64,000 nucleotides of DNA from Vicinamibacterales bacterium (GCA_025456345.1 JALOKU010000001.1:248529-312528), one strand, 5' to 3'. Shown: positions 2,998 to 48,235, counted from the first letter of the stretch. Numbers and translations are program-made. Notes: generated from the sequence alone by a model not told the origin.

Positions 2998-3146
2998 ACC
3001 AGGCGGGAGGACACCGTACCCTCGAGGGGTGACGGCCGGAGGCACGAGGCTGGCCTGAACCCCGGGAATTCCCAGGAAACAGCGCGCCGGCCCGAGGCAC
3101 CGTCATTGCATTCAATCCTGACGCCGGCGTCCAGGAGGGGTGTGCT

Positions 3147-4007: not shown

Positions 4008-4035
4008 ACGCGGGCAGGGAGAGAGGACGTCGGGA

Positions 4036-5673
4036 TCAGGCGTGCACGCCGGGCGCCTCGTGCCCGGTGCGCGCGACGTACTCGACGTATGACCCCGGGT
4101 ACAGGTGCGGGTGCGTGTCGTGCCCGCTCTCGCCGCCGAGTTCGAGCACGCGGTTGCTGAGGCCGCGCAGGAACATGCGGTCGTGCGAGACAAAGAGCAT
4201 CGTGCCCTCGAAGTCGCGAAGCGCCTCGACCAGCATCTCCTTCGTCGCGAGGTCCAGGTGGTTGGTGGGCTCGTCGAGCACGAGGAAGTTGGGCGGGTCC
4301 AGCAGCATGCGGGCCATGGCCAGCCGCGTCTTCTCGCCCCCCGACAGCGACCGGATCTTCTTCTCCACGTCATCGCCTGAGAACTGGAAGGCCCCGGCCA
4401 GATTGCGCAGGGTGCCGATGGACTCCCGGGGGAAGTCCCGCTCGAGCTGTTCGGCGACGGTCAGGCCGGAGTCCAGCAGGTCCAGCGCCTGCTGCGCGAA
4501 GTAGCCCATCTTGAGGCTGGCGCCGAGGCGGATCTCGCCGGCGTCCGGCGCGAGGGCCCCGGCCACCATCCGGAGCAGCGTCGTCTTGCCGGCGCCGTTG
4601 CGGCCCATCACGCACCATCGCTCGCCGCGCCGGACCGTCATCGACAGGCCGTCGTACACGACGTGGCGTCCGTAGGCCTTGGAGACACCCTCAAGGACCG
4701 CGACCTGTTCGCCCGAGCGCGCCGGCTGCCGGAAATCGAACGCCACCACCCGGCGCTTCTTCGGCAACTCGATCTTCTCGATCTTGTCGAGGGCCTTCAC
4801 CCGGCTCTGCACCTGCGCGGCCTTGGCCGCGTGGGCCGAGAACCGCTCGATGAACCGCCGCTCCTTGGCCAGCATGGCCTGCTGGCGCGCGTACGCGGCC
4901 TCGCGGTTGGCGTCCCGGATGCCGCGCTCGCGCTCGTAGAAGTCGTAGTTGCCGGTATAGACCGTGATCTCGCCGTCGTCGATCTCCGCGATTTTCGACG
5001 CGACGCGGTTCATGAACTCGCGGTCGTGGGAGGTCATCAGCAGAGCGCCGGACCGGCCCTTCAGGAACTGCTCGAGCCAGATGATCGACTCGATGTCGAG
5101 GTGGTTCGTCGGCTCGTCCATCAGCAGCACGTCGGGATTGCCGAGCAGCACGCGGGCCATGGCGACGCGCATCTTCCAGCCGCCCGACAGCGCGCCGACG
5201 TCGCCGTCGATGCGATCGTCGTCGAACCCCAGGCCGTGCAGCACCTCGCGGGCCTGCGCTTCGAGCGCGTAGCCGCCGAGGTGGTCGTATTCCTCCTGCA
5301 CCTCACCGAACCGCGCAAGGATGCGATCCATGTCGCCGGCCCGCGCCGGGTCGGCCATCGCGTGCTGCAGGTCTTCGAGTTCGTGATGGAGCGATCCCGC
5401 GCGCCCGCTGCCGGCGATCGCCTCGTCGAGCACCGAACGCCCGGCCATTTCTTCGGCGTCCTGGCGGAAGTACCCGATCGTGAGCTTCTTCGGGACGCTG
5501 ATCTCGCCCTCGTCCGGTTCTTCGTCGCCGGTGATCATGCGAAACAGCGTCGTCTTGCCGGACCCGTTGGGGCCGACGAGGCCGACTTTTTCGCCGGGGT
5601 TGAGCTGGAAGGAGGCTTCGACAAAGAGCAGCTGCCGGCCGTACTGCTTCGAGACGGAACTGAAAGCAATCAT
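4036..5673 (-). CDS. ABC-F family ATPase (two ABC cassettes, no membrane domain)
   Basis: 545 aa. Walker A motifs GPNGSGKTT and GRNGAGKTT, ABC signatures LSGGWKMR and LSGGEKTR, Walker B motifs LLMDEPTNHLD and LVLDEPTNHLD, and an inter-cassette linker. Confidence 0.95.
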   Translation of the reverse strand: MIAFSSVSKQYGRQLLFVEASFQLNPGEKVGLVGPNGSGKTTLFRMITGDEEPDEGEISVPKKLTIGYFRQDAEEMAGRSVLDEAIAGSGRAGSLHHELEDLQHAMADPARAGDMDRILARFGEVQEEYDHLGGYALEAQAREVLHGLGFDDDRIDGDVGALSGGWKMRVAMARVLLGNPDVLLMDEPTNHLDIESIIWLEQFLKGRSGALLMTSHDREFMNRVASKIAEIDDGEITVYTGNYDFYERERGIRDANREAAYARQQAMLAKERRFIERFSAHAAKAAQVQSRVKALDKIEKIELPKKRRVVAFDFRQPARSGEQVAVLEGVSKAYGRHVVYDGLSMTVRRGERWCVMGRNGAGKTTLLRMVAGALAPDAGEIRLGASLKMGYFAQQALDLLDSGLTVAEQLERDFPRESIGTLRNLAGAFQFSGDDVEKKIRSLSGGEKTRLAMARMLLDPPNFLVLDEPTNHLDLATKEMLVEALRDFEGTMLFVSHDRMFLRGLSNRVLELGGESGHDTHPHLYPGSYVEYVARTGHEAPGVHA

Positions 5674-8480: not shown

Positions 8481-8505
8481 TACGGCGGCATCACGGAGGT
8501 ACTTC

Positions 8506-8880
8506 ATGGAGCTAGCGTTCGTGAAGGTGGGTCCGAAAGTGCGCGGCAGCCGATTCCACTTGGGTGTAGCGCACGCGAAGATCTACAAGGTCGACGGCGA
8601 GTATCGGGTGACGACTCCTGCTGAAGTGAACGGCCGGGAGAAGGAGTTCAGGATCCTGAACATGACGTCCGAGCCAGCAAGGGTCACGCTGTCGGAGGAC
8701 ATTGTCGGCCGCGGCGCCGGTCTTATCACCGTCCCCGGAGAGGGCATGATAACGATTCCGATCGCCAAGGGCGCTTGGGGAGTGCGGTCATACTCGGTGG
8801 CCATGGATACGCTTGGGGGATTCGTCACGGCCCACGGCAACTCCGACCCCGTCATCATCATCGACCCGCCAGCCAACTAG
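8506..8880 (+). CDS. Small hypothetical protein (124 aa, beta-rich), downstream partner of the kinase-TPR gene
   Basis: GGAGG RBS 7 nt upstream of the ATG. Starts 25 nt after the kinase stop on the same strand. Third-position GC is visibly lower than in its neighbours. I recognise no family. It ends ...YSVAMDTLGGFVTAHGNSDPVIIIDPPAN. Confidence 0.6.
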   Translation: MELAFVKVGPKVRGSRFHLGVAHAKIYKVDGEYRVTTPAEVNGREKEFRILNMTSEPARVTLSEDIVGRGAGLITVPGEGMITIPIAKGAWGVRSYSVAMDTLGGFVTAHGNSDPVIIIDPPAN

Positions 8881-8890
8881 GTTTTCGCTC

Positions 8891-9805
8891 CTACGCCCCA
8901 TCGCCGAGGATGCTGTCGAGCCGCTGCTCGACGGTGTCCTCGAGCGTGAAGCCCATCACCTGCAGGTAGTGGAGCGCCGAGTCGAGCAGCGCGCTTTGCG
9001 GCACCAGCCCCACCATCTCGACGCGGCTGACGCCCGAGCCGAAGCGCCGGAGTTCCGTCTTGACGCCCTCGAGGATGCGATAGAGGGGCGTCTCGGTGTA
9101 GTTGCCCACCGTGATGTTCAGCAGCGCCACGTTCCGGTTGCGGTCGAGGGCGGGGTAGAAGTGCACGCCCGGCATTCCCGTCGCCGGGTTTGACAGCACG
9201 GCCGCCACCCACTGGGCCGCCTCCTCGTCGGGCGTCGTGAAGTACGCCTTGAAGTTCACGATCGGCATGCGCGCGCCGATAATCGTCGCGCCCTTATCCG
9301 GCGGGAACACGTCGGGCCCGAAGTCGGGCTTCCACACCGGGTCGCCGATCTTCGCGGCGAACCCCTCGTACTCGCCCTCGCGGATGTTCTCGATGTCGCG
9401 CCGCATCGGCTTGCGGGCCGATTCGGCGAACAGGTAGACGGGCAGCTGGAAGCGCGCGGCCACCGCTTCGGCGAACTCCACGGACCAGGCCACCGCGTTC
9501 GCGATAGGCGCGTTCCGGAGCGCGACGAAGGGGAAGACGTCCACCGCCCCGATGCGCGGGTACTCGCCCTCGTGCTGGCGCATGTCGATGTGCTCGAGCG
9601 CGTCCTGGTAGAGCAGGTAGCCGCCCTGGAAGATCGCGTCCTTCCGGCCGGTGAAGGAGTAAATCGTCCGGTTGCGCACCTGGTCCATCGAGACGTCCAG
9701 CACGACCAGGCCGGGGACGGCCTCGAGCTTCTCGCGCAGCGACTGGATGAACGCCTCGTCACGGCCCTCACACACATTCGGGACGACGGAGATGATCTGC
9801 GACAT
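8891..9805 (-). CDS. ftcD: Glutamate formimidoyltransferase (FtcD N-terminal-type)
   Basis: 304 aa. The N-terminus MSQIISVVPNVCEGRD matches the VPNxSEGR start of formiminotransferases. Length and overall pattern are consistent. Confidence 0.85.
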   Translation of the reverse strand: MSQIISVVPNVCEGRDEAFIQSLREKLEAVPGLVVLDVSMDQVRNRTIYSFTGRKDAIFQGGYLLYQDALEHIDMRQHEGEYPRIGAVDVFPFVALRNAPIANAVAWSVEFAEAVAARFQLPVYLFAESARKPMRRDIENIREGEYEGFAAKIGDPVWKPDFGPDVFPPDKGATIIGARMPIVNFKAYFTTPDEEAAQWVAAVLSNPATGMPGVHFYPALDRNRNVALLNITVGNYTETPLYRILEGVKTELRRFGSGVSRVEMVGLVPQSALLDSALHYLQVMGFTLEDTVEQRLDSILGDGA

Positions 9806-37297: not shown

Positions 37298-37663
37298 ATG
37301 CCACTCCAGGTGCTCAGCACGCTCGACGGTCTTGAATCCGCGTTGTCCGGCTCGAGTGGCCGCCCGCTGCTCCTCCTCAAGCACAGCCTGACGTGCGGCA
37401 CAAGCGCCTACGCCCACGAGGAAGTCGAGGACTTCCTGTCGGAGCCCGGTGTCCCGGTCGATGCCTGCGTCGTGCACGTGCAGACAGGGCGCGCGGTTTC
37501 CGACGCCATCGCCGGGCGCTTCGGCATCCGCCACGAATCTCCGCAACTGCTGCTCATCGCGAACAGCCAGGTCGTCTGGCAGGCGTCGCACCACCGCATC
37601 ACCAGGCGCGAGATCGCGGCTGCCCTGAAACGCCACGTTACGGCCCCGCCCGGCCATCCATGA
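37298..37663 (+). CDS. ytxJ: YtxJ-like (bacillithiol-system, DUF2847) monothiol thioredoxin-fold protein
   Basis: 121 aa. LLLLKHSLTCGTS resembles the KHSxxCxxS single-Cys motif of YtxJ. Length and the C-terminal HxxIT pattern fit. Confidence 0.7.
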   Translation: MPLQVLSTLDGLESALSGSSGRPLLLLKHSLTCGTSAYAHEEVEDFLSEPGVPVDACVVHVQTGRAVSDAIAGRFGIRHESPQLLLIANSQVVWQASHHRITRREIAAALKRHVTAPPGHP

Positions 37664-38061
37664 CGCCGCTTGCCGCCCGTGCGCACTTCGCGCATGATCG
37701 GCGTGTGGCGGAGCGCGAATCCTCCCGGCTGGTCTACTCATCCGGCGCCGGCCGGGTGTGCCCGCGCTGCGGCTGGCCGGCCGGCAACTGCCGCTGCAGC
37801 ACGCGCGGCGCCGACGCACCGGTCCCCGTGCGCGTGGTTGCGAAGCTTCGCGTCGAGAAAGCGGGGCGGGGCGGGAAGGCGGTCACCCTCGTCTACGACC
37901 TTCCCAGAAACGCCGCGTTTCTCAAAGAGCTGTCCCGCGAACTGAAGCAGGCCTGCGGCGCCGGAGGCACCGTCCTGGACGATGCCATCGAGATCCAGGG
38001 CGACCTGCGCGACCGCATCCGCGATCTGCTCCTGAAGAAGGGTTTCGGCGTCAAAGGGTGA
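37660..38061 (+). CDS. yciH: SUI1/YciH-family translation initiation factor
   Basis: ATG at 37660 overlaps the ytxJ stop (ATGA). CPRCGWPAGNCRC zinc-knuckle-like segment, then GRGGKAVTLV...LKQACGAGGTV...IEIQGD, typical of SUI1. Confidence 0.8.
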   Translation: MTPLAARAHFAHDRRVAERESSRLVYSSGAGRVCPRCGWPAGNCRCSTRGADAPVPVRVVAKLRVEKAGRGGKAVTLVYDLPRNAAFLKELSRELKQACGAGGTVLDDAIEIQGDLRDRIRDLLLKKGFGVKG

Positions 38062-38117
38062 CGGTCCGCGGAGCGGATTCAGTGCGTCCGGCAGGCGTGC
38101 TGGAATGGAGGTGCCGC

Positions 38118-40286
38118 ATGATCGGGCTCCTGCTCGACGCGGCCGGCCGCATCGGCGCGGGCCCGGCCGAGACCGAGGACGACCGCGTCCGCCGCCTCAT
38201 CTGGTCTGCCACGCTGATATGCGCGGCGCCGCTGTCGGCCCTCATGGCCGTCGCCTTCGCCGTGCTCGGCCTTCGTCTGGCGGCGGCGGTCTGGGCTATC
38301 GGCGCGGCATTCTGGCTGGCGGAATTGCTGCTCTTTCACCTGCTCCGCCGCGGCCTGAACGGGTTCGCCCTGGCCAGCCAACTCGCGTGCGTCGTGTTTG
38401 CGTTTGTCGGTTCGATCAGCCTGGGCGGGCCCCTCTCCTCCGGCGGCCTCATCCTCATGGGGCTCATCGGTCCGTTCTACGCCCTGGTGTTTCCCCGGCC
38501 ACGCCGTGCGGCCTGGCTCCTCGTCGCCTGCGTCGTGTCGGTCGCCGCCAGCGTCGCGCTCGCCGGGATGCTCCCATGGGCTCAGGTGCTGCCTCCCGTC
38601 GTCAATCTGGTGATGTTCGGGGCCACCCTCACCGTGGTGGCGATCTTCGTGTTCGTGACACTGCGTTTCTTTGTCCGCGAGCGCGACAGGGCGTTGGCTC
38701 TTCTCCGGGAAGCGCAGGATCGAATCTCGAGGCTTCTCGAGTCGTCACCGCGCGCGTCCGAGACCGTTCCCGAGTGGTCGAGATCTGTCGCGAAGGACAT
38801 CGGTGCCGCCATCGGGGCCGACGCGATCGGTATCTGGGAACTGGAGGGCGGGGGCCTGATCCCCGTGTCAAACCAGGATCTCCCGCCGCCTTCCGTCGAG
38901 GAACTCGCTGCGGCGCTCTCCGCGGCGGGCTCGCGATTCATCGAGAGGACTGACGGAGTGGCCGTGCCCCTGGCAGGCATGAGCGGCGAGCTATGCGGCG
39001 CCCTCGTGGTGCATGGCGCGGGGCTGGTCTGGGGCGAGAGCGAACGGCGCCTCCTCGCCGGGCTGGCCCATCAGCTTGGCGCGGCGCTCGACATGGGCCG
39101 GATGCGCCGGCAGCTCGACGTGGCCGAGCAGCGGCGCGCGAGCACGCGTCGCGAGATGCAGGCGCGCGGCATTGCGACGCTGCAGGTCTGCCGGTCCTGC
39201 GGCCGGTGCTACGACCACGTGGCGGCCCGCTGCGCGGCCGACGGGGCGACGCTCGAATCGCCCCGCACGCTGCCGTACCGCCTGCTCGATCGATACCGCT
39301 TCCTGCGGGTGCTCGGACAGGGCGGCATGGGCATGGTCCTCGCGGCGCATGACGAGAAGCTCGCGCGCGATGTCGCCGTCAAGCTCATCCGGGCGGAGCA
39401 CTTCAACGACCAGGGCATGAAAGAACGATTCGAGCGGGAGGCCCGCGCGGTGGCCCGCATCCAGCACCCGGGCGTGATCAACCTCCACGATTCCGGCGAA
39501 CTCGAAGACGGTACGGCGTTTCTCGTGATGGAGAAGCTCACCGGGTGCGATCTCGCCGCCGTGCTCAGGTCCGCCGGCCGTGGAACGCCCGCACAGGTGG
39601 CCGCCCTGATCCGTGAGGGGTGCGCGGCCCTCGGGGCCGCCCACCGGGCCGGCGTCGTGCATCGCGACGTGAAGCCGGAGAACATCTTTCTCGTCGAGAC
39701 TCCGGGCGGATTCCTGGTCAAAGTGCTCGATTTCGGCCTGGCGAAATCGATGACGATCGAGAAGGGGCTCACGCAAACGGGAATCATGGTCGGGACACCT
39801 CGCTACATGTCCCCCGAGCAGGTTCGCGGCGAGGACGTCGACGCGGGCACCGACATCTACTCGTTCGCGGCCGTCTGCCACGAGGCGCTCACGGGCCGGA
39901 CGGCGGTCTCGGGCGACGACCTCGCGCGGATCCTGATCAACGTCTGCACCGAAGTGGCGGCCGTCCCTTCGTCGATCGTTCCCGGGCTTCCGCTCGAACT
40001 GGACCAGGTGTTCGCATCGGCGCTCTCCAAGGACAGGGCTCGACGGCCCGGAGACATCGAGCGGTGGGGAGCTGCTGCCGCCCGGATCCTGGAACACCTT
40101 CTTCCGGATTCCGAGGCGGCAGGATGGCCGGCCACCGGGGAGCTCAGGCGCGCGGAGCGTCAACCGCCACCCGGTGAGGCGGATACGGTTGACACGGCCG
40201 CTGCATCGCCCGCCCTGCCTTCCAGCCCGGCCGAGACCACCGAGACCACCGGCGTCGACGCTGACCGGACCGGCCGTCGTCGATGA
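38118..40286 (+). CDS. Sensor Ser/Thr kinase: polytopic membrane N-terminus, GAF-like domain, Cys4 ribbon, C-terminal Hanks kinase
   Basis: ATG at 38118 (internal Met of ORF 37758..40286). Five or six TM helices in residues 25-185. GAF-like residues 215-330. CRSCGRCYDHVAARC (358-372). Kinase motifs GQGGMGMV, VAVKL, HRDVKPENI, DFGLAK, GTPRYMSPEQ. Confidence 0.85.
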   Translation: MIGLLLDAAGRIGAGPAETEDDRVRRLIWSATLICAAPLSALMAVAFAVLGLRLAAAVWAIGAAFWLAELLLFHLLRRGLNGFALASQLACVVFAFVGSISLGGPLSSGGLILMGLIGPFYALVFPRPRRAAWLLVACVVSVAASVALAGMLPWAQVLPPVVNLVMFGATLTVVAIFVFVTLRFFVRERDRALALLREAQDRISRLLESSPRASETVPEWSRSVAKDIGAAIGADAIGIWELEGGGLIPVSNQDLPPPSVEELAAALSAAGSRFIERTDGVAVPLAGMSGELCGALVVHGAGLVWGESERRLLAGLAHQLGAALDMGRMRRQLDVAEQRRASTRREMQARGIATLQVCRSCGRCYDHVAARCAADGATLESPRTLPYRLLDRYRFLRVLGQGGMGMVLAAHDEKLARDVAVKLIRAEHFNDQGMKERFEREARAVARIQHPGVINLHDSGELEDGTAFLVMEKLTGCDLAAVLRSAGRGTPAQVAALIREGCAALGAAHRAGVVHRDVKPENIFLVETPGGFLVKVLDFGLAKSMTIEKGLTQTGIMVGTPRYMSPEQVRGEDVDAGTDIYSFAAVCHEALTGRTAVSGDDLARILINVCTEVAAVPSSIVPGLPLELDQVFASALSKDRARRPGDIERWGAAAARILEHLLPDSEAAGWPATGELRRAERQPPPGEADTVDTAAASPALPSSPAETTETTGVDADRTGRRR

Positions 40287-41281
40287 ACCGGCGCGTGGCC
40301 GGCCGGGAGTGGTGCTGGTACTCCCGCCGCGCTCCGGCCGGATGCTATGATGACGGTCGGGTACACCACGTGAACGTCAGCCCCCGTCTCCGTCGCGGCG
40401 CGAGTGCCGTCGCTGCCGCCATCCTCGCGATCCTGATCGCCCTGACGCCGGTGTGGGCCGCCGACGGCCCCGGCGCCGTGGCCTACGCCGCGATGATGAA
40501 GGCCTGGCAGGCCGGCAAGCTCGACGACGCGATCAGGTCCGCCGACGCCGTGCTGAAGGCCGAGCCTGCCAACGTCGCCTTCCTGAACGCCATCGGCGGC
40601 CTCTACTGCGAGAAGGCGCAGAAGGCGAGCGTCTTCACGAAGCTCTCATGGGCCGGCAAGTGCCACAGCGTCTGGGAGCGCGCGCTCACGCTTGATCCGA
40701 AGAACGTCCAGACCCATACGAGCCTGATGCAGTACTACCTGCGGGCGCCCGGCATCGCGGGCGGCGGCACCGACAAGGCGAAGGCCGAAGCCGACCGGAT
40801 GGCGGCGCTCGACCCGGTAGCCGGCGAGATCAGCCGGGGCCACATCGCCCGGTCCGGGAAGCTGCCGGCCGAGGCCGAACGGCACTATCGGAAGGCCGTG
40901 GAGATCGACGCCACCGGCCGGCGCGGGCCCGTCGAACTCGCGTCGTTCTACGCGGGGGAGCAGCGCTGGAGCGACGCGCGCGGCGTCTTCGAGGCCCGGC
41001 TGACGAAGAACCCCGGCGACTCGTTCTCGGCATACATGCTCGCGCGGCTGATGCAAGCCCAGGGTGCGGATCTTCCGCGGGCCCTCGACCTGATCGATCG
41101 CTATCTGGCCTCGCCCGCGCTCGAAGGCGGCCCCACCCACGCCGACGCGTGGTTCCGGAAGGGGCAGGTGTTCGACAAGCTCGGCCGTCGTGCCGACGCG
41201 GTCGCCGCGCTGGAGACCGCGCTGAAGCTGGATCCCAGGCACGCGCTCGCGTCGCGCGAACTCCAGAAGCTCAAGGGCTGA
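40283..41281 (+). CDS. TPR-repeat protein with a hydrophobic N-terminal anchor or signal sequence
   Basis: ATG at 40283 overlaps the stop of the upstream kinase (ATGA). An alternative GTG start at 40370 lies directly before the hydrophobic segment AVAAAILAILIALTPVWAAD. The protein is TPR-like helical repeats throughout. Confidence 0.7.
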   Translation: MNRRVAGREWCWYSRRAPAGCYDDGRVHHVNVSPRLRRGASAVAAAILAILIALTPVWAADGPGAVAYAAMMKAWQAGKLDDAIRSADAVLKAEPANVAFLNAIGGLYCEKAQKASVFTKLSWAGKCHSVWERALTLDPKNVQTHTSLMQYYLRAPGIAGGGTDKAKAEADRMAALDPVAGEISRGHIARSGKLPAEAERHYRKAVEIDATGRRGPVELASFYAGEQRWSDARGVFEARLTKNPGDSFSAYMLARLMQAQGADLPRALDLIDRYLASPALEGGPTHADAWFRKGQVFDKLGRRADAVAALETALKLDPRHALASRELQKLKG

Positions 41282-41287
41282 CGCGCG

Positions 41288-44257
41288 ATGTCGTTGTCGA
41301 GCGACGACGAGCCGACCATGCTCCCGGCGCCGGGACCCGGCGCAGCCGATGCGGGGAGCGACGGTCCCCGCCTCGCCGGCGGGCAGATCATCGGCCCGTA
41401 CCGGATCGCAGGGCTCCTCGGCAGGGGAGGCATGGGGGAGGTCTACGACGCCGAGCACCTCGAGCACGGCCGCCGCGTGGCGCTCAAGGTGCTGAGCCAG
41501 CGGCTCGCAGGCGCCGACGACCGCGCGCGGTTCCTGCGCGAAGGCCAGCTGGCGGCTTCCCTCAATCATCCGAACACGGTCTTCGTCTTCGGCAGCGAGG
41601 AGATCAGCGGCAACCCCGTCATCGCGATGGAGCTGGTGGCGGGCGGGACGCTGAAAGACGTCGTTGACCGCGACGGGCCGATGGCGCCGCCGGCGGCGGT
41701 CGACGCGATCCTGCAGGTGGCGGCTGGCCTCGACGCCGCGCTGGCCTGCGGCGTCCTTCACCGGGACGTGAAGCCGTCGAACTGCTTCGTCGAGCCCGAT
41801 GGCACGGTGAAAGTCGGCGACTTCGGCCTGTCGATTCCGGTGCTCGCGCCCGACGTCACGCAGCCGGGCGAGATGGCCACGTTCCAGGGCACGCCCCAGT
41901 TTGCCGCGCCGGAGCAGCTGCGCGGCCAGCGGCTGGATGTCCGCGCCGACATCTATGCCGTCGGAGCCACGCTGCATTACCTGCTCACGGGCCGCCCGCC
42001 GTTCGAGGACCGCGATCTGATGGCGCTACTGACGAAAGTGGCCACCGAGCTGCCCGCACCGCCCAGCCGGCCGGGAACCGTCATCGCGCCGGGCCTGTCG
42101 GCGGTCGTCCTCCGGTGCCTCGCGAAGGACCCGGCCGCCAGGCCTTCGTCGTACGCCGAACTCGAGGTCAGCCTGCGCCCGTTCAGTTCGGCCGTGCCCG
42201 TGCCCGCGAGCCTCGGCCTGCGCGCCGTCGCCGGGTTGATCGACGCGCTGCTGCTGGGCGCCGTCACCGCGCCGCTCGCGATCGCGCCCGTGCTCGAGTT
42301 GGTCGGCGACAACAGCATCAACGCCTCGATTCGCTACTCGAGCCCCCGCGCCCTCGGCAGTCCGTTGTGGGTCACGCTGGCTGCCGGCGCGCTCATCGTC
42401 CTGTACTACGGCCTGCTGGAAGGGCGGTGGGCGAGGTCGCTCGGCAAACGGGTGTGTGGTCTCGAGGTCGTTGCGACAGGGGGCGGACCTGCCGGGTTCC
42501 GCCGAGCGATGCTGCGCGTGCTGGTGTTCGTGCTGCCGTACTGGATCGTGACCGTGCCCAAGGTGGTCGCGGCCGTGGCCGGCGCAACCGGAGGGCGCTC
42601 CTCGACAGGCTGGTGGGGGGAGGCGCTCTACTGGGGCGGCGACCTGCTGCTGCTGCTCATGTTCTCGTCCATGCGCCGGAGCAACGGGTTTGCCGCGTGG
42701 CACGACCTCGCGTCCGGGACCCGCGTGACCGCGACGGCCCGGCGGAAGGGCCGGGAGGCGATTGACGCGCCCGCGGCGGCCGTTCCGGCCGGCTCGGATG
42801 CGTCATCGCGGGATGCTGTCGGACCCTACTCCGTCATCGGGGCGGTCGGCCCGACGACGGGCGGCGGCGTCGTGCTCCTCGGTTTCGACGGCGCGCTCAA
42901 ACGGCATGTGTGGATTCACTGGCTGCCTCCCGGCGAGCCCGCCGTCGGCGCGGTCCGTGCGCGCCTGGGCCGCGCGGGCCGCCTGCGCTGGGTCAACGGC
43001 CGGCGCTCCGGCGATGAGGCGTGGGACGCCTACGAGGCCCCGGACGGGGCGCCGCTCCTGGAGGTGTGCGCCGCCGCGCAGCCGTGGAGCGTCGTGCAGC
43101 ATTGGATGGCGGACCTTGCGCGGGAGCTGGAGGCGGCGTCGGTGGACGGGTCGACGCCCGTGCTGGCGCTCGATCGAGTCTGGATCACGCGAAGCAGCGG
43201 GGCGCGCCTGTTCGACTTTCCGGCACCGGGACTCGGTGCCGTGACAGATTCCGGATCCGGTGAAGCGGTGGCGGACGCGCAGCACTTCCTCGCTCGCGTG
43301 GCGGCGCATGCCCTCGGTGCCGGACCACAGGCGGCGCCGGCGCGCGCGCTGCCGCACGGACCGCTGCCGCGCCTGGCGCAGCACACGCTCGCCACGCTGG
43401 AGCGGAGCGGATTCCCGTCGGGAACTGCTGTCGCGGAGCGGGCGGCCGCGTTGACGCAGGGCCCCGACCGCGTGACCCGCGCACGCCGCGCGGCGTCGAT
43501 CCTGCTCGCCAATGTCCCCCTGTTCTTCGCCCTGCTTGCGCTGTCGATCGGGCTGCCCACTGCCGTCCGTCTGCTGGAGACCCAGTTCCTGGAGATGAGC
43601 AGGGCCTTGGTGGAGATACGGACACTCGACGGAAAGACGGACCAGGAGTCCGTGACGGCGCGAGAGGCGCTGGAACTGTACGCTGCGGACCGCTTCCGCG
43701 CGAAACTCGCCGATGAGACAACGTGGCATGACCCGCGTTCCGCCGGCCTGCTGACGCCGCTGAGGCCGATCGCCGTCCGCATCCTGGCCGGCACGTCCTC
43801 CCCGTCGGACGAAGAACGCCGCGCCGCGCATGCCGCCGCCGCCGCTCGCCTCGGGAACCCGGTCTCTATCAGGAGACAGGCAGTCAGCATCGCCACCCTT
43901 CTGCCGGCCATCGTCCTGCTGGTGTCGGCGATCGTCGCGGTGCTTTCGGCACTGCTGTTCAGGGGCGGCCTGCTGCTGAGGTCGCTCGGCGTTGCCGTCG
44001 TCTCTCCGCGCGGGTCGGACGCCTCGCGGGTCAGGGCGGCGTGGCGCGCGATCGTGGCCTGGAGCCCGGTCCTGCTGCTCTGGCTCTACCTGTTGGCGTG
44101 GTCGGCGGCTGGCGGCGAGGTGTTCGACGCGTTCTCGAACTGGTGGGTGCCAGCTGCGGCGGCCGCCGTCGCGATCCTTGGCAGCGCGTGGGCGATCCTC
44201 CACCCGTCGAGCGGCGCCGCGGAGCGCCTGACGGGCACCTGCCTGGTTCCGCGCTAG
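41288..44257 (+). CDS. Ser/Thr kinase fused to RDD domain, kinase-like degenerate domain and second RDD-like membrane domain
   Basis: 989 aa, starting 6 nt after the TPR gene. Kinase motifs GRGGMGEVY, VALKVL, HRDVKPSNC, DFGLS, GTPQFAAPEQ. RDD domain 1 (residues ~308-482): LRAVAGLIDALLLG, SLGKRVCGLEVV, WHDLASGTRV. A degenerate kinase-like block spans ~510-650. A C-terminal RDD-like block spans ~905-989. Confidence 0.85.
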   Translation: MSLSSDDEPTMLPAPGPGAADAGSDGPRLAGGQIIGPYRIAGLLGRGGMGEVYDAEHLEHGRRVALKVLSQRLAGADDRARFLREGQLAASLNHPNTVFVFGSEEISGNPVIAMELVAGGTLKDVVDRDGPMAPPAAVDAILQVAAGLDAALACGVLHRDVKPSNCFVEPDGTVKVGDFGLSIPVLAPDVTQPGEMATFQGTPQFAAPEQLRGQRLDVRADIYAVGATLHYLLTGRPPFEDRDLMALLTKVATELPAPPSRPGTVIAPGLSAVVLRCLAKDPAARPSSYAELEVSLRPFSSAVPVPASLGLRAVAGLIDALLLGAVTAPLAIAPVLELVGDNSINASIRYSSPRALGSPLWVTLAAGALIVLYYGLLEGRWARSLGKRVCGLEVVATGGGPAGFRRAMLRVLVFVLPYWIVTVPKVVAAVAGATGGRSSTGWWGEALYWGGDLLLLLMFSSMRRSNGFAAWHDLASGTRVTATARRKGREAIDAPAAAVPAGSDASSRDAVGPYSVIGAVGPTTGGGVVLLGFDGALKRHVWIHWLPPGEPAVGAVRARLGRAGRLRWVNGRRSGDEAWDAYEAPDGAPLLEVCAAAQPWSVVQHWMADLARELEAASVDGSTPVLALDRVWITRSSGARLFDFPAPGLGAVTDSGSGEAVADAQHFLARVAAHALGAGPQAAPARALPHGPLPRLAQHTLATLERSGFPSGTAVAERAAALTQGPDRVTRARRAASILLANVPLFFALLALSIGLPTAVRLLETQFLEMSRALVEIRTLDGKTDQESVTAREALELYAADRFRAKLADETTWHDPRSAGLLTPLRPIAVRILAGTSSPSDEERRAAHAAAAARLGNPVSIRRQAVSIATLLPAIVLLVSAIVAVLSALLFRGGLLLRSLGVAVVSPRGSDASRVRAAWRAIVAWSPVLLLWLYLLAWSAAGGEVFDAFSNWWVPAAAAAVAILGSAWAILHPSSGAAERLTGTCLVPR

Positions 44258-44476
44258 GCCGCGTCCTCCGTCCGCGCCGCCCTCGATTGCATTTTCTGCA
44301 CGCTCATCGCATCGGACCGCCGCAGAAATCGCCACATGCCTGCCAGGCGAGCGTTTCGGTTCCCTCAAGTCGTTGTCCCGACACGAGATGCGGAGAAGGG
44401 ATTCGTCCGTCCGTTGGCGTGCTGATTGCTCACGCCACGCCAGAGGGGCAGGCAGGGCCCGTTGGGAGGGATTGGC

Positions 44477-44845
44477 ATGTTGCATCAGGCAGCCGTTCTT
44501 GTATACGATGATTATCGTATGAGCAAGCAGGCGATTTCCGTCACGTTGTCGCCGGACAACCTGGTCTGGCTGCGGGGGCGTGCACTGGCTGACGGCAGGG
44601 TCAGCCTCAGTGAGTTCCTCGACAGGCTCGTCACGCGGGCGCGGACCGGCGGGGCGCCGGCGCGTCCGGCGAGGTCGATGAGGGGCGCCCTTGCGGTGAA
44701 CGCCGACGAGGACGTCGTTGCGACGCCGTCGGTCGAACCCGACGTGTGGGCAGCCTGGGAGGCGAAGTGGGAGGGGCTGCTCGAGGGCCTCGACCCTTCA
44801 TCGCCGACGCCCAGGCGGGGAGGCGCACGTGGCCAGGGTGCCTGA
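44477..44845 (+). CDS. vapB: Ribbon-helix-helix (CopG/VapB-like) antitoxin
   Basis: ATG at 44477 has a GGAGG RBS 7 nt upstream. The alternative ATG at 44519 gives MSKQAISVTLSPDNLVWLRGRA..., a typical RHH N-terminal strand plus helix. The stop overlaps the start region of the PIN gene. Confidence 0.6.
   Translation: MLHQAAVLVYDDYRMSKQAISVTLSPDNLVWLRGRALADGRVSLSEFLDRLVTRARTGGAPARPARSMRGALAVNADEDVVATPSVEPDVWAAWEAKWEGLLEGLDPSSPTPRRGGARGQGA
44503..44520. promoter_or_regulatory. 7-bp perfect inverted repeat ATACGAT-gatt-ATCGTAT at the 5' end of the antitoxin gene
   Basis: 44503-44509 and 44514-44520. It overlaps the ATG at 44519. It could be an autoregulatory operator if the gene starts at 44519, but it is intragenic if the gene starts at 44477. 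Confidence 0.3.
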
Positions 44846-45239
44846 CGCCGCGGTCTGCGACACCAACGCGCTGCTTTACTACGGCTTCGGCAGCCGGCGG
44901 CTGGGCAAGGTCGCTGCGGCGCTCTTCGACGCCTGCGACGCGCAGGACACGATCATCTACGTGCCGGCCGCCGTCATCCTGGAGTTCGGCCTCGTGCTTG
45001 GCGGCCGGCGTTCTCCGGTCCGGGTCCGCCTGCGCGGCTTCTTTGAGGACCTCTTCGCGAACCCGGCATTCCAGCCGTTCGATCTCACGCCGGAACAGGT
45101 CTATCTGGCGGACGAGGAGCGGCCCAATAACGACCCGTTCGATGGGTTGATCTGCGCGGCGGCGCGGCGCCTCGGCCTGCCGCTCATCACCTGCGACACT
45201 GACATCGCCGACTGGGGACGCGTCCGCGTCGTCTGGTAG
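44838..45239 (+). CDS. vapC: PIN-domain toxin (VapC-like ribonuclease)
   Basis: GTG at 44838 (or 44829) overlaps the antitoxin stop at 44843-44845. VCDTNALLYY carries the first PIN acidic residue. EFGLVL, NDPFDGLICAAA and ITCDTD match the remaining acidic positions. Confidence 0.75.
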   Translation: MPDAAVCDTNALLYYGFGSRRLGKVAAALFDACDAQDTIIYVPAAVILEFGLVLGGRRSPVRVRLRGFFEDLFANPAFQPFDLTPEQVYLADEERPNNDPFDGLICAAARRLGLPLITCDTDIADWGRVRVVW

Positions 45240-45349: not shown

Positions 45350-48235
45350 ATGGTCGGCCAGACTATCTCGCACTACCGCATCGCCGAGCGGCTGGGCTCG
45401 GGCGGGATGGGTGTGGTCTACCGGGCCCAGGACCTGCGCCTGGAGCGGCCGGTCGCCCTCAAGTTCCTGCCTGAAGCGCTGACCAAGGACCCCTCGGCCA
45501 TGGAGCGCCTGCTTCGCGAGGCGAAGGCCGCCTCGTCGCTTCACCATCAGAACATCCGCACGATCTTCTCGTTCGACGAGTACGAGGGACGCCAGTTCAT
45601 CGTCATGGAGCTGCTCGACGGGCGTCCGCTCGACCGCGTGGTCGCGGACGGGCCGATGGCGCCCGCCCTCGTGCTGTCGATGGCAGCCCAGGTTGCCGAC
45701 GCCCTCGACGTCGCGCATGCCCGGGGCATCGTGCATCGCGACATCAAGCCCGCCAACCTGTTCCTGACCGGCTCGGGTCTTCTGAAGGTGCTGGACTTCG
45801 GCCTGGCCAAGACGCACCACGTGGCGCCGGCAACCGATTCCGCCATCGACGGCCAGGCGACCATGCTGGACCTGACGATGTCGGGCACGACGATCGGAAC
45901 GGCGTCGTACATGGCACCCGAGCAGGTGCTCGGCGAATCGGTCGACAGGCGCAGCGACCTGTTTTCGTTCGGTGCCGTGCTGTACGAAATGGCCACCGGG
46001 CGCCAGGCGTTCTGCGGGCCGACGCTGGGTGCGATTTTCGACGCGATCCTGAACCGCCCGCCCTTACCGCTGCAGTTGTTGCAGCCGGATCTGCCGGCAG
46101 AGCTCGGCGCGATCATCAGCAAGGCGCTCGAGAAGGACCCGGCCTGCCGGTATCAGAGCGCTGCCAAGATGCGCACGGACCTCGAGTCCGCGAGGCAGAT
46201 CCTGGAGGCGGACTCGGGCGCAGATCTCGGCCCCCGCGCGGCGGAGACTCGCTCGCGGTCAAGACCGGCGGGCGGCGGCCGCCGCTGGCCCGCCGCCGCC
46301 GCAGGCGTGACCGCCGCAGCCGTGCTTGCCCTCGTGGCTGCCGGGCTGTGGATGGGCGTGCCGCGCGCCACGTACTATCCGTGCGTGGTGGTCGGCGAGT
46401 TTCGGAGCACCATCGACGAGGTGCCGGCGAAGCTCGTGGAGTTCCAGGTGAAGCGGGCGCTCAGCCAGGTGCCGGAGTTCGTGGTGTATGACCAGCGCGG
46501 CTACGAGCTCGCGCTGAAGGCGGCGGTTCCAGACGAGACACACGACGCAGCGTCCTGGAAGCGGTGGATGCCTGGCCGGCGGACCAGCCGTCCGGCCGGG
46601 CCCGCCGTGCGGGTCACCGCGGACATCGGGCCGTCGCTGGGCAACATCGACGTCGCGCTCTCCATCACCACCAGAGCACGCGCGGAACACCGTGCGATGC
46701 CATACAAGGGCGTGAACGCCTTCTTCGACCGGGGCATCGACGACATCGCCAGGCTCGCCATCGCCCGCTTTCGCGAGGACGACCACGGAGCGGCGGCGGC
46801 CGGGGCCCTGCAGTACAGGCCCGCGCGGACGCTGCTGTCGCATCATCTCGACGCGGTGAGGATCTTCTGGCGGGCCCACGACGCGTGGACGCGCCTGGAC
46901 CTGGGCGCCGAACGCGACCTGCAGCGCGCCCTCGAGATTGACGCCGACTTCGCGCTTGCGCGCCTCACGCTGGGGGAGATCCGGATCTTCCAGATGAGGA
47001 TGAAGCCCGCGATCGACGAGATCGAGCGGGCGCGGCAGACCCCGGACGCGCTCACCGACGCCGAGCGGCTCCGCAGTTCGGCGCTGCTCGCGCGCGCGTC
47101 GCTCAACGCGCCGGACGAGAGGGTCGGGCTGCAGCGCCTGATCGAGCTCGAGCCCACGAGCAAGGAGTACGTCTTCGAGCTTGGCGAATCGTATTTCCAC
47201 ACCGCCGACATTGACGAAGCGAGCGTGCAGTACGAGCGGGCGCTCCGGCTCGAGCCCGACTACGCCACGGCGCACAATCACCTTGGCTACTGCTACTCGT
47301 GGAGCGGTGATCACAGGAGAGCCCAGGAACACTTGACCCGCTACCTGGAGCTGGACCGGTCAGCGAACGCCTGGGACAGTCTCGGCGACGCGTACATGCA
47401 CGCCGGCGAATACGCGAAAGCCGCTCACGCGAAGCAGCAGGCGCTGGCGCAGGCGCCCGACCTCTACTTCGCGGTCAAGCGCCTGATTGCCATCGACATC
47501 CTCAGCGGCCGGCTCTCGGAGGCGGCGCGCAAGGTCCAGGCCGCGCTGGGGAGCGCGGCGGACGCCCTGCAGAGGGCCGAGTTCTACGCGGCCCGCGCGT
47601 ACGGCGAACTGCGGGCAGGGCGCCTCAACCAGGCTGCCGACGCCTGTCGCGCCGGCCTCGCGCTCATCGCGCCAGACAGCGATGACTCGCCCGCCGATGA
47701 ACTGTTGTGGCTTCAGGGCCAGGCCGCCCTCGCACGACACGATACTGCAGCCGCGGCCAGGGCGCTGGCCAGGCTGCACGAGATGGTGGCGAAGGGCCGC
47801 ATCTCCGAAACGAACTACCGGCCGGTTTACAAGTACTGGCTGCACCTTGCCGCCCTGGTCGATGCCGCGGAAGGACGGCGGACCGAGGCGGCGGCCCGGC
47901 TGGGCGACCTCGACCACGTCAGGCAGAAGCTGGGCTATTGGGGCACACCGTACGACCAGGCGTTCTTCCTTGATGAGATCGGCCGCGTGCGCGAGTCCCT
48001 CGGTGATGCCGTGCGGGCGGAACGCGACTACCGCGATGCCCTGGCCTACAATCCGCACTACGCGCTCGCGCGCGTCCATCTGGGGATGCTCCTGCGCTCC
48101 GCAGGCAGGGCCGAGGAGGCCCGCCGCGAGCTCGCGGCGTTTGCCGCCGAGTGGAAGGACGCCGACCCTGCGGTGCCCGAACTGAAGCAGCTTGCCGGCC
48201 TGAGCACGGACAGCGGCCGGCCGCTTCGACCGTAG
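45350..48235 (+). CDS. Ser/Thr protein kinase with TM helix and C-terminal TPR region
   Basis: 961 aa. Motifs GSGGMGVVY, VALKFL, HRDIKPANL, DFGLAK, GTASYMAPEQ. TM helix AAAGVTAAAVLALVAAGLW. Long TPR region. Confidence 0.9.
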   Translation: MVGQTISHYRIAERLGSGGMGVVYRAQDLRLERPVALKFLPEALTKDPSAMERLLREAKAASSLHHQNIRTIFSFDEYEGRQFIVMELLDGRPLDRVVADGPMAPALVLSMAAQVADALDVAHARGIVHRDIKPANLFLTGSGLLKVLDFGLAKTHHVAPATDSAIDGQATMLDLTMSGTTIGTASYMAPEQVLGESVDRRSDLFSFGAVLYEMATGRQAFCGPTLGAIFDAILNRPPLPLQLLQPDLPAELGAIISKALEKDPACRYQSAAKMRTDLESARQILEADSGADLGPRAAETRSRSRPAGGGRRWPAAAAGVTAAAVLALVAAGLWMGVPRATYYPCVVVGEFRSTIDEVPAKLVEFQVKRALSQVPEFVVYDQRGYELALKAAVPDETHDAASWKRWMPGRRTSRPAGPAVRVTADIGPSLGNIDVALSITTRARAEHRAMPYKGVNAFFDRGIDDIARLAIARFREDDHGAAAAGALQYRPARTLLSHHLDAVRIFWRAHDAWTRLDLGAERDLQRALEIDADFALARLTLGEIRIFQMRMKPAIDEIERARQTPDALTDAERLRSSALLARASLNAPDERVGLQRLIELEPTSKEYVFELGESYFHTADIDEASVQYERALRLEPDYATAHNHLGYCYSWSGDHRRAQEHLTRYLELDRSANAWDSLGDAYMHAGEYAKAAHAKQQALAQAPDLYFAVKRLIAIDILSGRLSEAARKVQAALGSAADALQRAEFYAARAYGELRAGRLNQAADACRAGLALIAPDSDDSPADELLWLQGQAALARHDTAAAARALARLHEMVAKGRISETNYRPVYKYWLHLAALVDAAEGRRTEAAARLGDLDHVRQKLGYWGTPYDQAFFLDEIGRVRESLGDAVRAERDYRDALAYNPHYALARVHLGMLLRSAGRAEEARRELAAFAAEWKDADPAVPELKQLAGLSTDSGRPLRP

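Follow-up and report, generated by a model that had tools for sequence, protein, structure and literature searches.

Tandem kinase–RDD architecture joins a Hanks-type kinase to a predicted pseudokinase in a large family of bacterial membrane proteins

The 989-aa protein described here, encoded in a 64,000-nucleotide stretch of DNA from a Vicinamibacterales bacterium (GCA_025456345.1 JALOKU010000001.1:248529-312528; hereafter the window), is a Hanks Ser/Thr kinase of the receptor type, organised as a fused pseudo-dimer in which an active kinase joined to a four-transmembrane (4-TM) RDD domain is followed by a predicted pseudokinase joined to a second 4-TM RDD domain. Its open reading frame runs on the plus strand from 41288 to 44257, with an ATG start and the stop codon included, and is regarded as a complete gene on the basis of the ORF listing, the translation and orthologs of the same length; full-length orthologs at 41–87% identity are equal in length, and one protein from a JGI metagenome (P0046) is identical. 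A four-module membrane kinase had been proposed at this locus in the original prediction, and all four modules are upheld: profile-profile and structure searches find kinase-fold similarity in the third module, and profile searches find RDD similarity at the C-terminus. In the source annotation, the whole family is described only as "protein kinase" or "RDD family membrane protein YckC", with Pkinase and one RDD domain, and the second half of the protein (pseudokinase and second RDD domain, RDD2) draws no match from the Pfam and NCBIfam models scanned. The full-length AF2 model has a pLDDT of 84.7 and a pTM of 0.77, the latter suggesting a defined arrangement between the modules.

Module 1, the active Hanks-type kinase domain (aa ~35–300; 41390..42187, plus strand), is delimited by its Pfam Pkinase match (aa 39–288, E 2.7e-44, 152 bits where the gathering score is 31.7), by its motif positions and by homolog columns. 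As expected of the complete Hanks kinase claimed for residues ~35–300, all catalytic motifs are in place (GRGGMG at 45, VALK at 64–67, HRDVKPSN at 158–165, DFG at 178 and APE at 207), supplying the complete set of Gly loop, VAIK Lys (K67), αC Glu (E85), HRD Asp (D160), Asn (N165), DFG Asp (D178) and APE. In the column statistics K67, E85, D160, N165 and D178 are kept in 94/94 full-length homologs, and module 1 is read from these residues as a catalytically intact and competent Hanks-type kinase. A canonical RDD domain (RDD1; aa 306–482; 42203..42733, plus strand) forms module 2 and is recognised by Pfam RDD (PF06271, aa 306–476, E 3.7e-15, with 56.9 bits where the cutoff is 24.1), AF2 secondary structure and homolog columns; the match above cutoff, together with the R/D/D signature, confirms the RDD membrane domain previously placed at ~308–482. 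AF2 gives it four hydrophobic helices (309–331, 360–381, 403–430 and 442–458), and its signature residues are R312 and D319, both present in 94/94 homologs, and D473, at which position Asp occurs in 71 and Glu in 23. Residues 1–482 have exactly the architecture of ordinary two-module Pkinase-RDD kinases, unlike which the present protein continues for ~500 further residues that comprise a second, cryptic kinase fold and an RDD domain with a predicted periplasmic insert.

Module 3, the cryptic pseudokinase (aa ~511–725; 42818..43462, plus strand), was identified by Foldseek, by hhalign against module 1 and by column statistics. Direct Pfam and NCBIfam scans and a PDB-sequence search returned no significant match to it, and 0/60 orthologs gave a Pfam match in this region. 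By hhalign, its alignment with the protein's own kinase stays in register between the Gly loop and DFG, at a probability of 65–89% and E 3e-6 to 6e-5, with cross-module and reversed-profile controls at <=1.6%, and a search of PDB sequences with a profile of module 3 alone gave 14 matches, of which 14/14 are Ser/Thr kinases and all are sub-threshold. Foldseek of the AF2 model of the module (pLDDT 88, pTM 0.75) retrieved 261 PDB chains at E<=1e-3; among the matches listed (the best 50 of 261) all are protein kinases, with target TM-scores of 0.53–0.62 against single-domain kinase chains. The best match is the pseudokinase of M. tuberculosis MviN/Rv3910 (E 9e-7), to which module 3 aligns with a TM-score normalised to target of 0.53–0.58 over about 250 columns at 16–18% identity. 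In the model, module 3 adopts a protein-kinase fold with the AF2 secondary-structure order β1-β2-β3-(αC)-β4-β5-αD-αE-β7-β8-αF, its elements being β1–β3 at 514–546, a vestigial αC at 555–558, β4–β5 at 568–583, αE at 600–620, β7/β8 at 631–641 and C-lobe helices at 664–722. The kinase-like block with replaced catalytic residues that had been proposed at ~510–650 is therefore retained as a pseudokinase, but its extent is revised, because the Foldseek alignments of about 250 columns and the C-lobe helices carry the fold to about aa 511–725.

Of the previously noted substitutions in module 3, VWIH for VAIK and DFP for DFG hold: H544 stands in place of the VAIK Lys, at a position that is His in 69 and Arg in 19 of 94 homologs and never Lys, and D643-F-P replaces DFG, with the DFG Asp kept in 87/94. 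The proposed counterpart of HRDxKPxN, ALDRVWIT, lies about four residues out of register, in that ALDR (627–630) aligns with KPSN and HRD corresponds approximately to T623–V625, from which the Asp is absent; the HRD-Asp position is variable in the 94 homologs (A, V, R, P and T being commonest), R630 replaces the catalytic Asn and is kept in 82/94, and D629 is kept in 72/94. There is no GxGxxG loop consensus, and helix αC has shrunk to 4 residues, which would make the Lys–Glu salt bridge impossible. At the adenine-pocket position, the VAIK Ala is replaced by W542, which is invariant in homologs and would fill the pocket, in the manner of the BRAF/KSR Ala-to-Phe pseudokinase mutants. The module has invariant residues of its own, including D534, L537, R539, V541, W542, R562, R565, W568, W579, G587 and E613, among which the basic R562 and R565 stand in for helix αC, and its non-catalytic motifs are maintained by strong purifying selection. 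Judged on its residues, module 3 qualifies as a pseudokinase under the usual sequence-based definition. The retained DFG Asp and the conserved D629 and R630 may form a residual ligand- or metal-binding site, and through D643, D629 and R630 the module might even be alive, either through some non-canonical activity (atypical phosphotransfer, for instance) or by binding nucleotides or small ligands, as nucleotide binding or other chemistry occurs in certain proteins classified as pseudokinases (bSTK Atlas, 10.1101/2025.01.12.632604). This reading is nevertheless very improbable in view of a Lys position that never holds Lys, an HRD position without Asp, the 4-residue αC, the missing GxGxxG consensus and the bulky invariant Trp in the adenine pocket.

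For the C-terminal part, a helical region followed by an RDD-like block had been proposed; the RDD domain at the C-terminus stands, but the helical region does not precede RDD2 as a spacer; it is inserted into that domain, which has its conserved Arg and first TM helix at 728–762. The N-terminal piece of RDD2 (module 4a, aa 728–762; 43469..43573, plus strand) was identified by the AF2 helix 731–762, by conservation of R734 and by the ortholog L069, and contains an Arg cluster (R731, R733 and R734, the last in 94/94) and TM helix 5. It is followed by the helical insert (aa 763–858; 43574..43861, plus strand), recognised by its AF2 helices (765–780, 786–808, 819–834 and 841–855), net charge and length range; the insert is ~96 aa long here and 89–103 aa across the family, is short or absent in L063, L069 and L073, is tandemly duplicated as a motif in P0110 and is followed by a PDZ domain in P0161. 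No Pfam match to the insert was found in the window protein or in orthologous tails, and the insert, predicted to be periplasmic, is a candidate sensor module. The rest of RDD2 (module 4b, aa 859–989; 43862..44254, plus strand) comprises TM6 at 859–890, a short helix, a strand at 902–905 (VAVV), TM7 at 914–940, TM8 at 953–971, a short helix at 977–982 (AERLTG) and a strand at 985–988, and it rests on hhalign against RDD1, on PF06271 matches in orthologs and on the element order, which in the full-length AF2 model is the same as in RDD1. Module 4 aligns with RDD1 by hhalign at a probability of 87–92% and E 5e-7 to 4e-6 (reversed-profile controls <=0.5%). Although the window's own aa 500–989 and 720–989 do not match Pfam RDD even at E<=10 or E<=1, 32/58 orthologous tails alone find PF06271 at E<=1 (best 1.3e-7), so that profile comparison bears out an RDD domain at the C-terminus, and the insert-less ortholog L069 matches positions 20–135 of the 137 in the Pfam RDD profile. 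The R-D-D signature is incomplete: the Arg is kept, the first Asp is lost (position 741 is A/C/S), and the second Asp position (979) is Glu in the window protein and D in 82 and E in 9 of 94 homologs. Given the lost signature Asp, module 4 is best classed, by its residues, as a diverged RDD homolog and not as a typical member.

Topology prediction, which had been proposed as a check, gives eight TM helices, four hydrophobic ones per RDD domain, with both kinase folds inferred to be cytoplasmic and the insert, a self-contained helical module in the first outward-facing loop of RDD2, to be periplasmic. The alternative of three TM helices per RDD domain would instead place module 3 in the periplasm as an extracellular kinase-fold sensor and the insert in the cytoplasm; three TMS are predicted for the RDD protein of Halobacillus (PMC5996927), and a strict-threshold hydropathy scan finds only 3 segments in RDD1. 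Against this, AF2 gives a fourth helix at 442–458 with a family mean hydropathy of +1.65 (TM8 has +2.05), and the loop charges follow the positive-inside rule under the 4+4 model, loops 2 and 6 and the C-tail having +1.8 to +2.9, and loops 1, 3 and 7 and the insert about 0 to -2.3 (the insert -2.3). Moreover, any pairing between the two short strands of each RDD domain (after TM2 and at the C-end) would require both to be on one side of the membrane, and variants with periplasmic-type thioredoxin or CarboxypepD_reg domains have exactly one added TM helix beyond the RDD2 C-terminus. The three-helix topology is hence considered extremely unlikely.

The collinear (kinase-RDD) x 2 order of two probably homologous halves fits an internal duplication followed by inactivation of one kinase, with which the original prediction agrees. 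However, the halves have diverged so deeply that the second may instead have been acquired independently. A survey of distribution, likewise proposed at the outset, found the four modules in one frame in 65/80 genome loci from Verrucomicrobiota, Planctomycetota, Acidobacteriota and others; among the other 15 loci, 13 have a contig end or a frame change, and L073 (without module 1) and L075 (without module 4) are unaccounted for. The family numbers about 1,700 clusters at 50% identity (E<=1e-30), with Myxococcota also among its phyla, and the coupling of the four modules is obligate.

The mechanism inferred from this arrangement, to which about an even chance is given, is that the protein works as a receptor kinase of fused, pseudo-heterodimeric make-up whose dead kinase is a built-in regulator or allosteric partner. 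The RDD bundles would pack in the membrane and place the dead kinase beside the live one. The dead kinase would be unable to phosphorylate because the β3 Lys and the HRD Asp are absent, and, with the invariant Trp542 in place of the adenine-pocket Ala, its conformation is probably locked and independent of nucleotide; in that state it would serve the active domain as a built-in brake or allosteric partner, replacing the homodimerisation by which ordinary bacterial receptor kinases such as PknB are activated. A periplasmic signal at the insert may then shift the RDD2 and RDD1 helices, change the kinase/pseudokinase interface and switch the output. The retention in module 3 of the DFG Asp and of D629/R630 counts against such a mechanism. 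In coupling a live and a dead kinase, here within a single chain, the protein resembles JAK JH2-JH1, HER3-EGFR and KSR-RAF by analogy alone, and the JAK-like regulation of a kinase by a pseudokinase is to be taken as such an analogy. Unlike in JAK, the kinase precedes the pseudokinase, a 4-TM domain lies between them, FERM-SH2 is lacking, and the kinase is of the bacterial Ser/Thr Hanks type. Classification as a JAK-type tandem was rejected, as the order is kinase, RDD, pseudokinase, RDD instead of FERM-SH2-JH2-JH1 and FERM/SH2 were not matched; the closest structural match of module 3 is the bacterial MviN pseudokinase and not JAK JH2.

Like MviN/MurJ Rv3910 (PDB 3otv, 3uqc, 3ouk and 3oun), the protein carries a degenerate Hanks fold fused to a polytopic membrane domain at its cytoplasmic face, with catalytic residues missing in both; the MviN chain, by contrast, includes no active kinase. 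The membrane part of MviN is a 14-TM flippase and not an RDD domain, and MviN undergoes trans-phosphorylation by PknB and is recognised by FhaA. By the same logic, module 3 might be a phospho-scaffold, that is, a docking platform or substrate phosphorylated in cis or in trans by the active kinase, which recruits other proteins (FHA proteins or the sigma factor, for example) or controls the RDD modules. The best structural match, which includes 3oun (a complex with the FhaA FHA domain), the invariant R562 and R565, which could read phospho-residues, and the strong purifying selection on non-catalytic motifs speak for it, whereas neighbour clustering of the 80 loci shows no conserved FHA-domain neighbour, nor has a phospho-acceptor site come to light; this explanation is judged rather unlikely, and it and the allosteric model are compatible with each other.

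Bacterial pseudokinases are few and poorly understood, and the pseudokinase and RDD2 of this large family went unseen by the Pfam and NCBIfam models scanned. The bSTK Atlas (10.1101/2025.01.12.632604) covers about 300,000 bacterial Ser/Thr kinases and describes seven pseudokinase families (CP1, DYD, ActPs1-3, DLHK and GLW), which are Hanks-derived and, in a resemblance to module 3, are defined by loss of the VAIK-Lys, HRD-Asp or DFG-Asp. These families were gathered by Pfam Pkinase homology, and MviN-type pseudokinases are among the Pfam-detectable ones, whereas module 3 is Pfam-undetectable in 60/60 orthologs; the words "RDD" and "tandem" are both absent from the main text of the preprint. 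It is tentatively suggested, with more doubt than confidence, that bacteria have here their first recognised family of receptors pairing a kinase with a pseudokinase in a single chain, characterised by an internally duplicated 8-TM (kinase-RDD)x2 plan, a Trp-filled adenine pocket and an αC replaced by an invariant Arg-rich loop, in which a permanent allosteric partner couples a periplasmic helical sensor, inserted in RDD2, to the live kinase and, in most lineages, to direct control of an adjacent ECF-like sigma factor. If true, RDD domains would be modules of transmembrane signal transmission and dimerisation and not transporters, giving this orphan domain a concrete role open to testing. A live and a dead kinase in one membrane protein offer a bacterial system for probing kinase/pseudokinase allostery, and two new domain models, for the pseudokinase and for the split RDD with insert, become buildable.

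In 52/80 loci the gene immediately upstream, co-oriented with the kinase gene, encodes an ECF-like sigma factor, and no anti-sigma gene was seen as a conserved neighbour among the 80 loci, making a sigma-factor signalling pathway a candidate for most family members. The arrangement resembles sigma/Hanks pairs (ECF43 PknT-EcfP and PknS-EcfK; ECF59-62, 217, 267 and 283), the kinase-linked ECF pattern being described in PMC7826278 and PMC13147305, although PknS is a single-pass protein with periplasmic TPRs and not an 8-TM RDD protein. In ECF43 systems, adjacent Hanks kinases phosphorylate the sigma factor directly (PMC13147305; PMC7826278), and in most lineages of the present family the ECF-like sigma factor encoded immediately upstream would likewise be the likely substrate. 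The phosphorylation-activated ECF43 sigmas have replaced the DxxD motif of sigma2.2 by uncharged residues and possess a conserved phospho-acceptor Thr (PMC13147305), whereas the sigma consensus at the linked loci retains the acidic motif (DAQDLTQEFF), so the ECF43 mechanism is not simply transferable. A profile search found no sigma-like ORF anywhere in the 64-kb window, which counts against the sigma-substrate step; with no adjacent sigma here and DxxD retained elsewhere, assignment to an ECF43-like system was rejected.

The sigma-factor operon link in most loci, which is typical of signalling, also bears on the proposal that ions or solutes pass through the two RDD bundles while the kinase/pseudokinase pair gates or reports transport, which would make the protein primarily a transporter and not a sensor. 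Halobacillus andaensis has a free-standing RDD protein, 178 aa long and predicted to contain 3 TMS, for which Na+(Li+,K+)/H+ antiport that requires Arg and Asp residues is reported (PMC5996927); it belongs to the same Pfam family as module 2 (module 4 more distantly) and shares the Arg/Asp signature, of which RDD1 keeps R312, D319 and D/E473. Nonetheless, the kinase has two RDD copies, the second of which lacks one signature Asp and has gained an insert, and the antiporter claim comes from a single study, which together with the operon link leaves the transporter proposal improbable. For its part, the description of the sole characterised RDD protein, in which 3 TM segments are predicted, as an antiporter of cations and protons points to transport and counts against a sensing role (PMC5996927).

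In the window's clade, the place of the sigma gene upstream is taken by a gene for an exported-looking TPR protein of 332 aa (40283..41281, plus strand; Pfam TPR), whose N-terminus is hydrophobic and signal-peptide-like and which is not sigma-like. This gene is absent from L001–L080. The TPR protein is a possible periplasmic partner of the kinase and, if co-transcribed and exported, might be involved in sensing; its gene is co-oriented with the kinase gene, ends 6 nt before the kinase start, and is also found directly upstream of the orthologs with 67% and 74% identity (L081 and L082).

The four-module kinase gene (41288–44257, forward strand) begins with an ATG start codon and encodes a protein of 989 aa, within a window whose G+C content is ~69% throughout; an identical 989-aa protein is found in a JGI metagenome (P0046). 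Pfam recognizes a Pkinase domain at aa 39–288 (E = 2.7e-44), followed by an RDD domain at aa 306–476 (E = 3.7e-15, over the curated cutoff), and the residues K67, E85, D160, N165, and D178 of the active kinase are each present in 94/94 sequences of an alignment of full-length homologs. When aa 500–989 are scanned directly with Pfam and NCBIfam, whole or as the pieces 500–704 and 705–989, no relevant match is obtained; these collections thus see modules 1 and 2 only, and modules 3 and 4 required more sensitive methods. Likewise, no BLASTP similarity is detected between the N-terminal and C-terminal halves (best E = 1.3), so that pairwise sequence comparison gives no sign of a duplication.

The C-terminal half constitutes a conserved family (45 matches), of which 33 members were aligned as the input for an AlphaFold2 model (pLDDT 88, pTM 0.75). 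When this model is compared with the PDB by Foldseek, 261 matches are obtained at E ≤ 1e-3, the best 50 of which are all protein kinases; the top match is the intracellular pseudokinase domain of M. tuberculosis Rv3910/MviN (E = 9e-7, ~250 aligned columns, target TM-score 0.53–0.58), followed by PknE, PknI, and Stk1/PknB. In profile–profile comparison (hhalign), module 3 and module 1 of the same protein align in register between the Gly loop and DFG. The probability is 84–89% for the initial alignments and 65% when deeper alignments are used (E = 3e-6 to 6e-5), the cross-module and reversed-profile controls reaching 0.1–1.6%. Sequence-to-profile methods are blind to module 3, because 0/60 orthologous module-3 segments match any Pfam kinase model, and a module-3-only profile recovers only sub-threshold matches among PDB sequences (E = 0.7–1.6); all 14 of these are Ser/Thr kinases, and the stretches matched agree with the hhalign register. 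An hmmsearch of PDB sequences with the 33-member C-half profile returns no kinase.

Module 3 therefore has the fold of a kinase and an apparently dead catalytic apparatus, as the original prediction had proposed for residues ~510–650, although the proposed extent is too short. In a model of the full-length protein (pLDDT 84.7, pTM 0.77, the latter hinting at a defined inter-module arrangement), strands β1 to β3 occupy aa 514–522, 528–534, and 539–546, a four-residue αC remnant lies at aa 555–558, and β4 (568–573), β5 (578–583), αD (590–593), αE (600–620), β7 (631–633), and β8 (639–641) follow in order; since the C-lobe helices (664–675, 695–705, and 712–722) continue to residue 722, the fold extends to ~725 rather than 650. 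The motif equivalences suggested earlier are borne out for the Gly loop, VWIH, and DFP, while the catalytic loop had been placed ~4 residues off, as ALDR aligns with KPSN. Across the 94 full-length homologs, the Lys position 544 is His in 69 and Arg in 19 and never Lys, the HRD-Asp position 625 is variable, the Asn position 630 is Arg in 82/94, the DFG Asp 643 is retained in 87/94, and the VAIK-Ala position 542 is Trp in every sequence. The module also has invariant residues of its own (D534, L537, R539, V541, W542, R562, R565, W568, W579, G587, and E613), which points to strong selection for a function other than catalysis; rival explanations are that module 3 retains some residual, non-canonical activity, or that the pseudokinase serves as an MviN-like phospho-scaffold.

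Module 4 is a diverged RDD domain divided by an insertion. The C-terminal block aligns with RDD1 in hhalign at a probability of 87–92% (E = 5e-7 to 4e-6; reversed controls ≤0.5%) over the core that runs from TM2 through the G-x-x-V-V strand and the Arg-rich loop to TM3, and the first such alignment continues to the terminal [D/E]-R-L-x-G-T-x-x-V motif. When the post-pseudokinase regions of orthologs are searched alone, 32/58 match Pfam RDD at E ≤ 1 (best 1.3e-7); the window's own copy has no Pfam RDD match. Members without the insert match nearly the whole profile (for example, positions 20–135 of 137 at locus L069), insert-bearing members with an RDD match cover only about positions 53–137, and in the full-length model both RDDs follow one order of elements (TM, loop, TM, short helix, strand, kinked TM, TM, short helix, strand), with four main helices (765–855) held in the first loop of RDD2. 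The RDD similarity expected of the C-terminus is thus found, and the helical region that had been read as preceding a second RDD-like block lies inside RDD2 as an insertion, as the profile coverage and the shared element order indicate. Of the signature residues, R734 of RDD2 is invariant among the 94 homologs, the first Asp is lost (replaced by A, C, or S), and the second is Asp in 82/94 and Glu in the window.

The insert measures 89–103 aa across the family and is short or absent at three loci (L063, L069, and L073). In a homolog of 1299 aa (P0110), the insert motif …Y-x-A-G-[RH]-F…W…H-P-x-V… is present as two tandem copies at aa ~950–1190, so that the insert behaves as an independent, duplicable module. 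A homolog of 963 aa (P0161), which may be cut by a contig end, carries a PDZ domain at aa 916–961 directly after the insert, at the expected place of RDD2 TM6.

Each RDD contributes four hydrophobic helices according to the full-length model and family hydropathy, the fourth being missed by a strict hydropathy scan. The loop charges (+2.9 for loop 2, +1.8 for loop 6 and for the C-tail, ~0 for loops 1, 3, and 7, and −2.3 for the insert) obey the positive-inside rule for eight TM helices with both ends cytoplasmic. We therefore infer an 8-TM protein in which both termini and both kinase folds face the cytoplasm and the insert projects into the periplasm. In three verrucomicrobial variants (L006:9444–11045, L026:9456–11042, and P0171, aa 1068–1599), an extension of ~530 aa past RDD2 begins with exactly one extra hydrophobic helix, followed by CarboxypepD_reg-like beta-sandwiches and a TlpA/AhpC-like thioredoxin domain. 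Domains of these kinds are usually periplasmic, and the extension suggests that, in these lineages, an input or output in the periplasm is related to redox. A low-probability alternative, in which an RDD has three TM helices and the pseudokinase lies in the periplasm, draws on the three-TMS prediction published for a stand-alone RDD protein (PMC5996927); the fourth hydrophobic helix, the loop charges, the strand pairing, and the variants with an extra TM helix speak against it, and it was rejected.

The four-module architecture is widely distributed. Scanning one genome for each species yielded 93 relatives, of which 80 loci were kept; most are from Verrucomicrobiota, the remainder including Planctomycetota, Acidobacteriota, Haliangiales, Hydrogenedentes, and Anaerolineales, and the closest belongs to Vicinamibacterales (41% over the C-half). 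All four modules share one reading frame at 65/80 loci, and 13 of the other 15 are explained by a contig end or a frame change, leaving L075, in which module 4 is not detected, and L073. The latter (Vicinamibacterales, 7827–9071) comprises only a partial RDD1, the pseudokinase, and an RDD2 without the insert, and no kinase domain was detected in the 8 kb of DNA upstream; either a genuine variant without the kinase or a gap in the assembly could account for it. Stand-alone pseudokinase–RDD2 proteins were also sought among the 80 loci, and none is convincing, most apparent cases being contig ends or frame changes. On a Chthoniobacteraceae contig (L036:36–1484 and 2541–4583), two four-module kinase genes lie head-to-tail as tandem paralogs. 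The arrangement (live kinase–RDD)(dead kinase–RDD) is a fused pseudo-dimer that is conserved as a unit. An exhaustive representative search gives 1,734 clusters (50% identity) at E ≤ 1e-30, and a full-length search at E ≤ 1e-60 recovers 3,433 proteins, the majority of the 120 best being ~1,000 aa long; source annotations call these homologs nothing more specific than "protein kinase" or "RDD family membrane protein YckC", with a precomputed Pfam content of only Pkinase and one RDD.

At 52/80 loci, or ~80% of those whose upstream DNA suffices to judge, a gene for a ~250-aa protein lies directly upstream on the same strand (for instance, among loci L002–L079, L045:229–996, L008:5418–6164, and L025:5658–6383). 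This ECF-like sigma factor matches the superfamily model TIGR02937 with E-values as low as 1.7e-12, and the Pfam models Sigma70_r2 and Sigma70_ECF give weak matches; NCBIfam classes it only in the generic sigma70-ECF superfamily, and it carries the motifs TTHWSLV, YWYPLYAFVRR, DAQDLTQEFF, and KRGGG. It is established that some ECF groups are linked to kinases and that sigma factors can be phosphorylated directly (PMC7826278; PMC13147305); the upstream sigma retains the acidic DxxD motif of sigma2.2, whereas ECF43 sigmas are without it (PMC13147305). An N-terminal, zinc-ribbon-like CxxC…CxxC motif is present in 51/52 sigma-linked kinases and 53/94 full-length homologs; the window protein and those relatives that share ≥50% identity with it have neither this motif nor the sigma. 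No sigma of this family is detected in the window by tblastn and a 38-sequence HMM in all six frames. Immediately upstream of the kinase, across a 6-nt gap, lies a TPR protein gene (40283–41281, forward strand) with a signal-peptide-like N-terminus, whose start overlaps the stop of the preceding ORF (ATGA); it is also directly upstream of the 67% and 74% identical orthologs (L081 and L082), and is absent from all 80 genome loci. A disguised sigma was considered for the TPR protein and rejected (hhalign probability 0.3%).

In the most likely mechanism, the RDD bundles would pack in the membrane and keep the dead kinase against the live kinase, for which it would serve as a built-in allosteric partner or brake. 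The dead kinase would probably be locked by Trp542 in a nucleotide-independent state, with a basic loop replacing αC, while the periplasmic insert may sense a signal, perhaps together with the TPR protein in the window's clade; in most lineages, the output could be phosphorylation of the adjacent sigma factor. A rival explanation regards the whole protein as a kinase-regulated transporter. The parts of the proposed kinase–pseudokinase unit are all of known kinds, namely a Hanks kinase, an RDD domain, a bacterial pseudokinase as in MviN, and a sigma–kinase pairing. A literature search for RDD together with a kinase found nothing relevant, nor was a description found of a single chain that combines a live kinase with a pseudokinase invisible to Pfam, with an RDD after each and a periplasmic insert in the second RDD. 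In its main text, the atlas of bacterial STKs mentions neither RDD nor tandem arrangements, and the seven families of pseudokinases that it lists are taken from Pfam-detectable sequences (10.1101/2025.01.12.632604). The interest of the family lies in its large size, in a hidden half left unannotated by the scanned Pfam and NCBIfam models, and in a directly testable hypothesis.

Three Hanks kinases are encoded inside 11 kb of the window, all on the forward strand. One is an ORF of 842 aa (37758–40286) with Pkinase at aa 513–764; Pfam recognizes nothing in its first ~500 aa, it overlaps a SUI1-containing ORF (37393–38061), and its true start is probably much later than called. As this kinase is missing between the SUI1 and TPR genes at the orthologous locus L082, it looks like an insertion in the window genome. 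Another (45350–48235) is a Ser/Thr kinase of 961 aa in which Pkinase lies at the N-terminus and TPR repeats lie at the C-terminus. Just downstream of the four-module kinase lies a PIN-domain (VapC-like) ORF (44718–45239, forward strand), preceded and overlapped by a small ORF without a Pfam match (44426–44845, forward strand) that could be its antitoxin.
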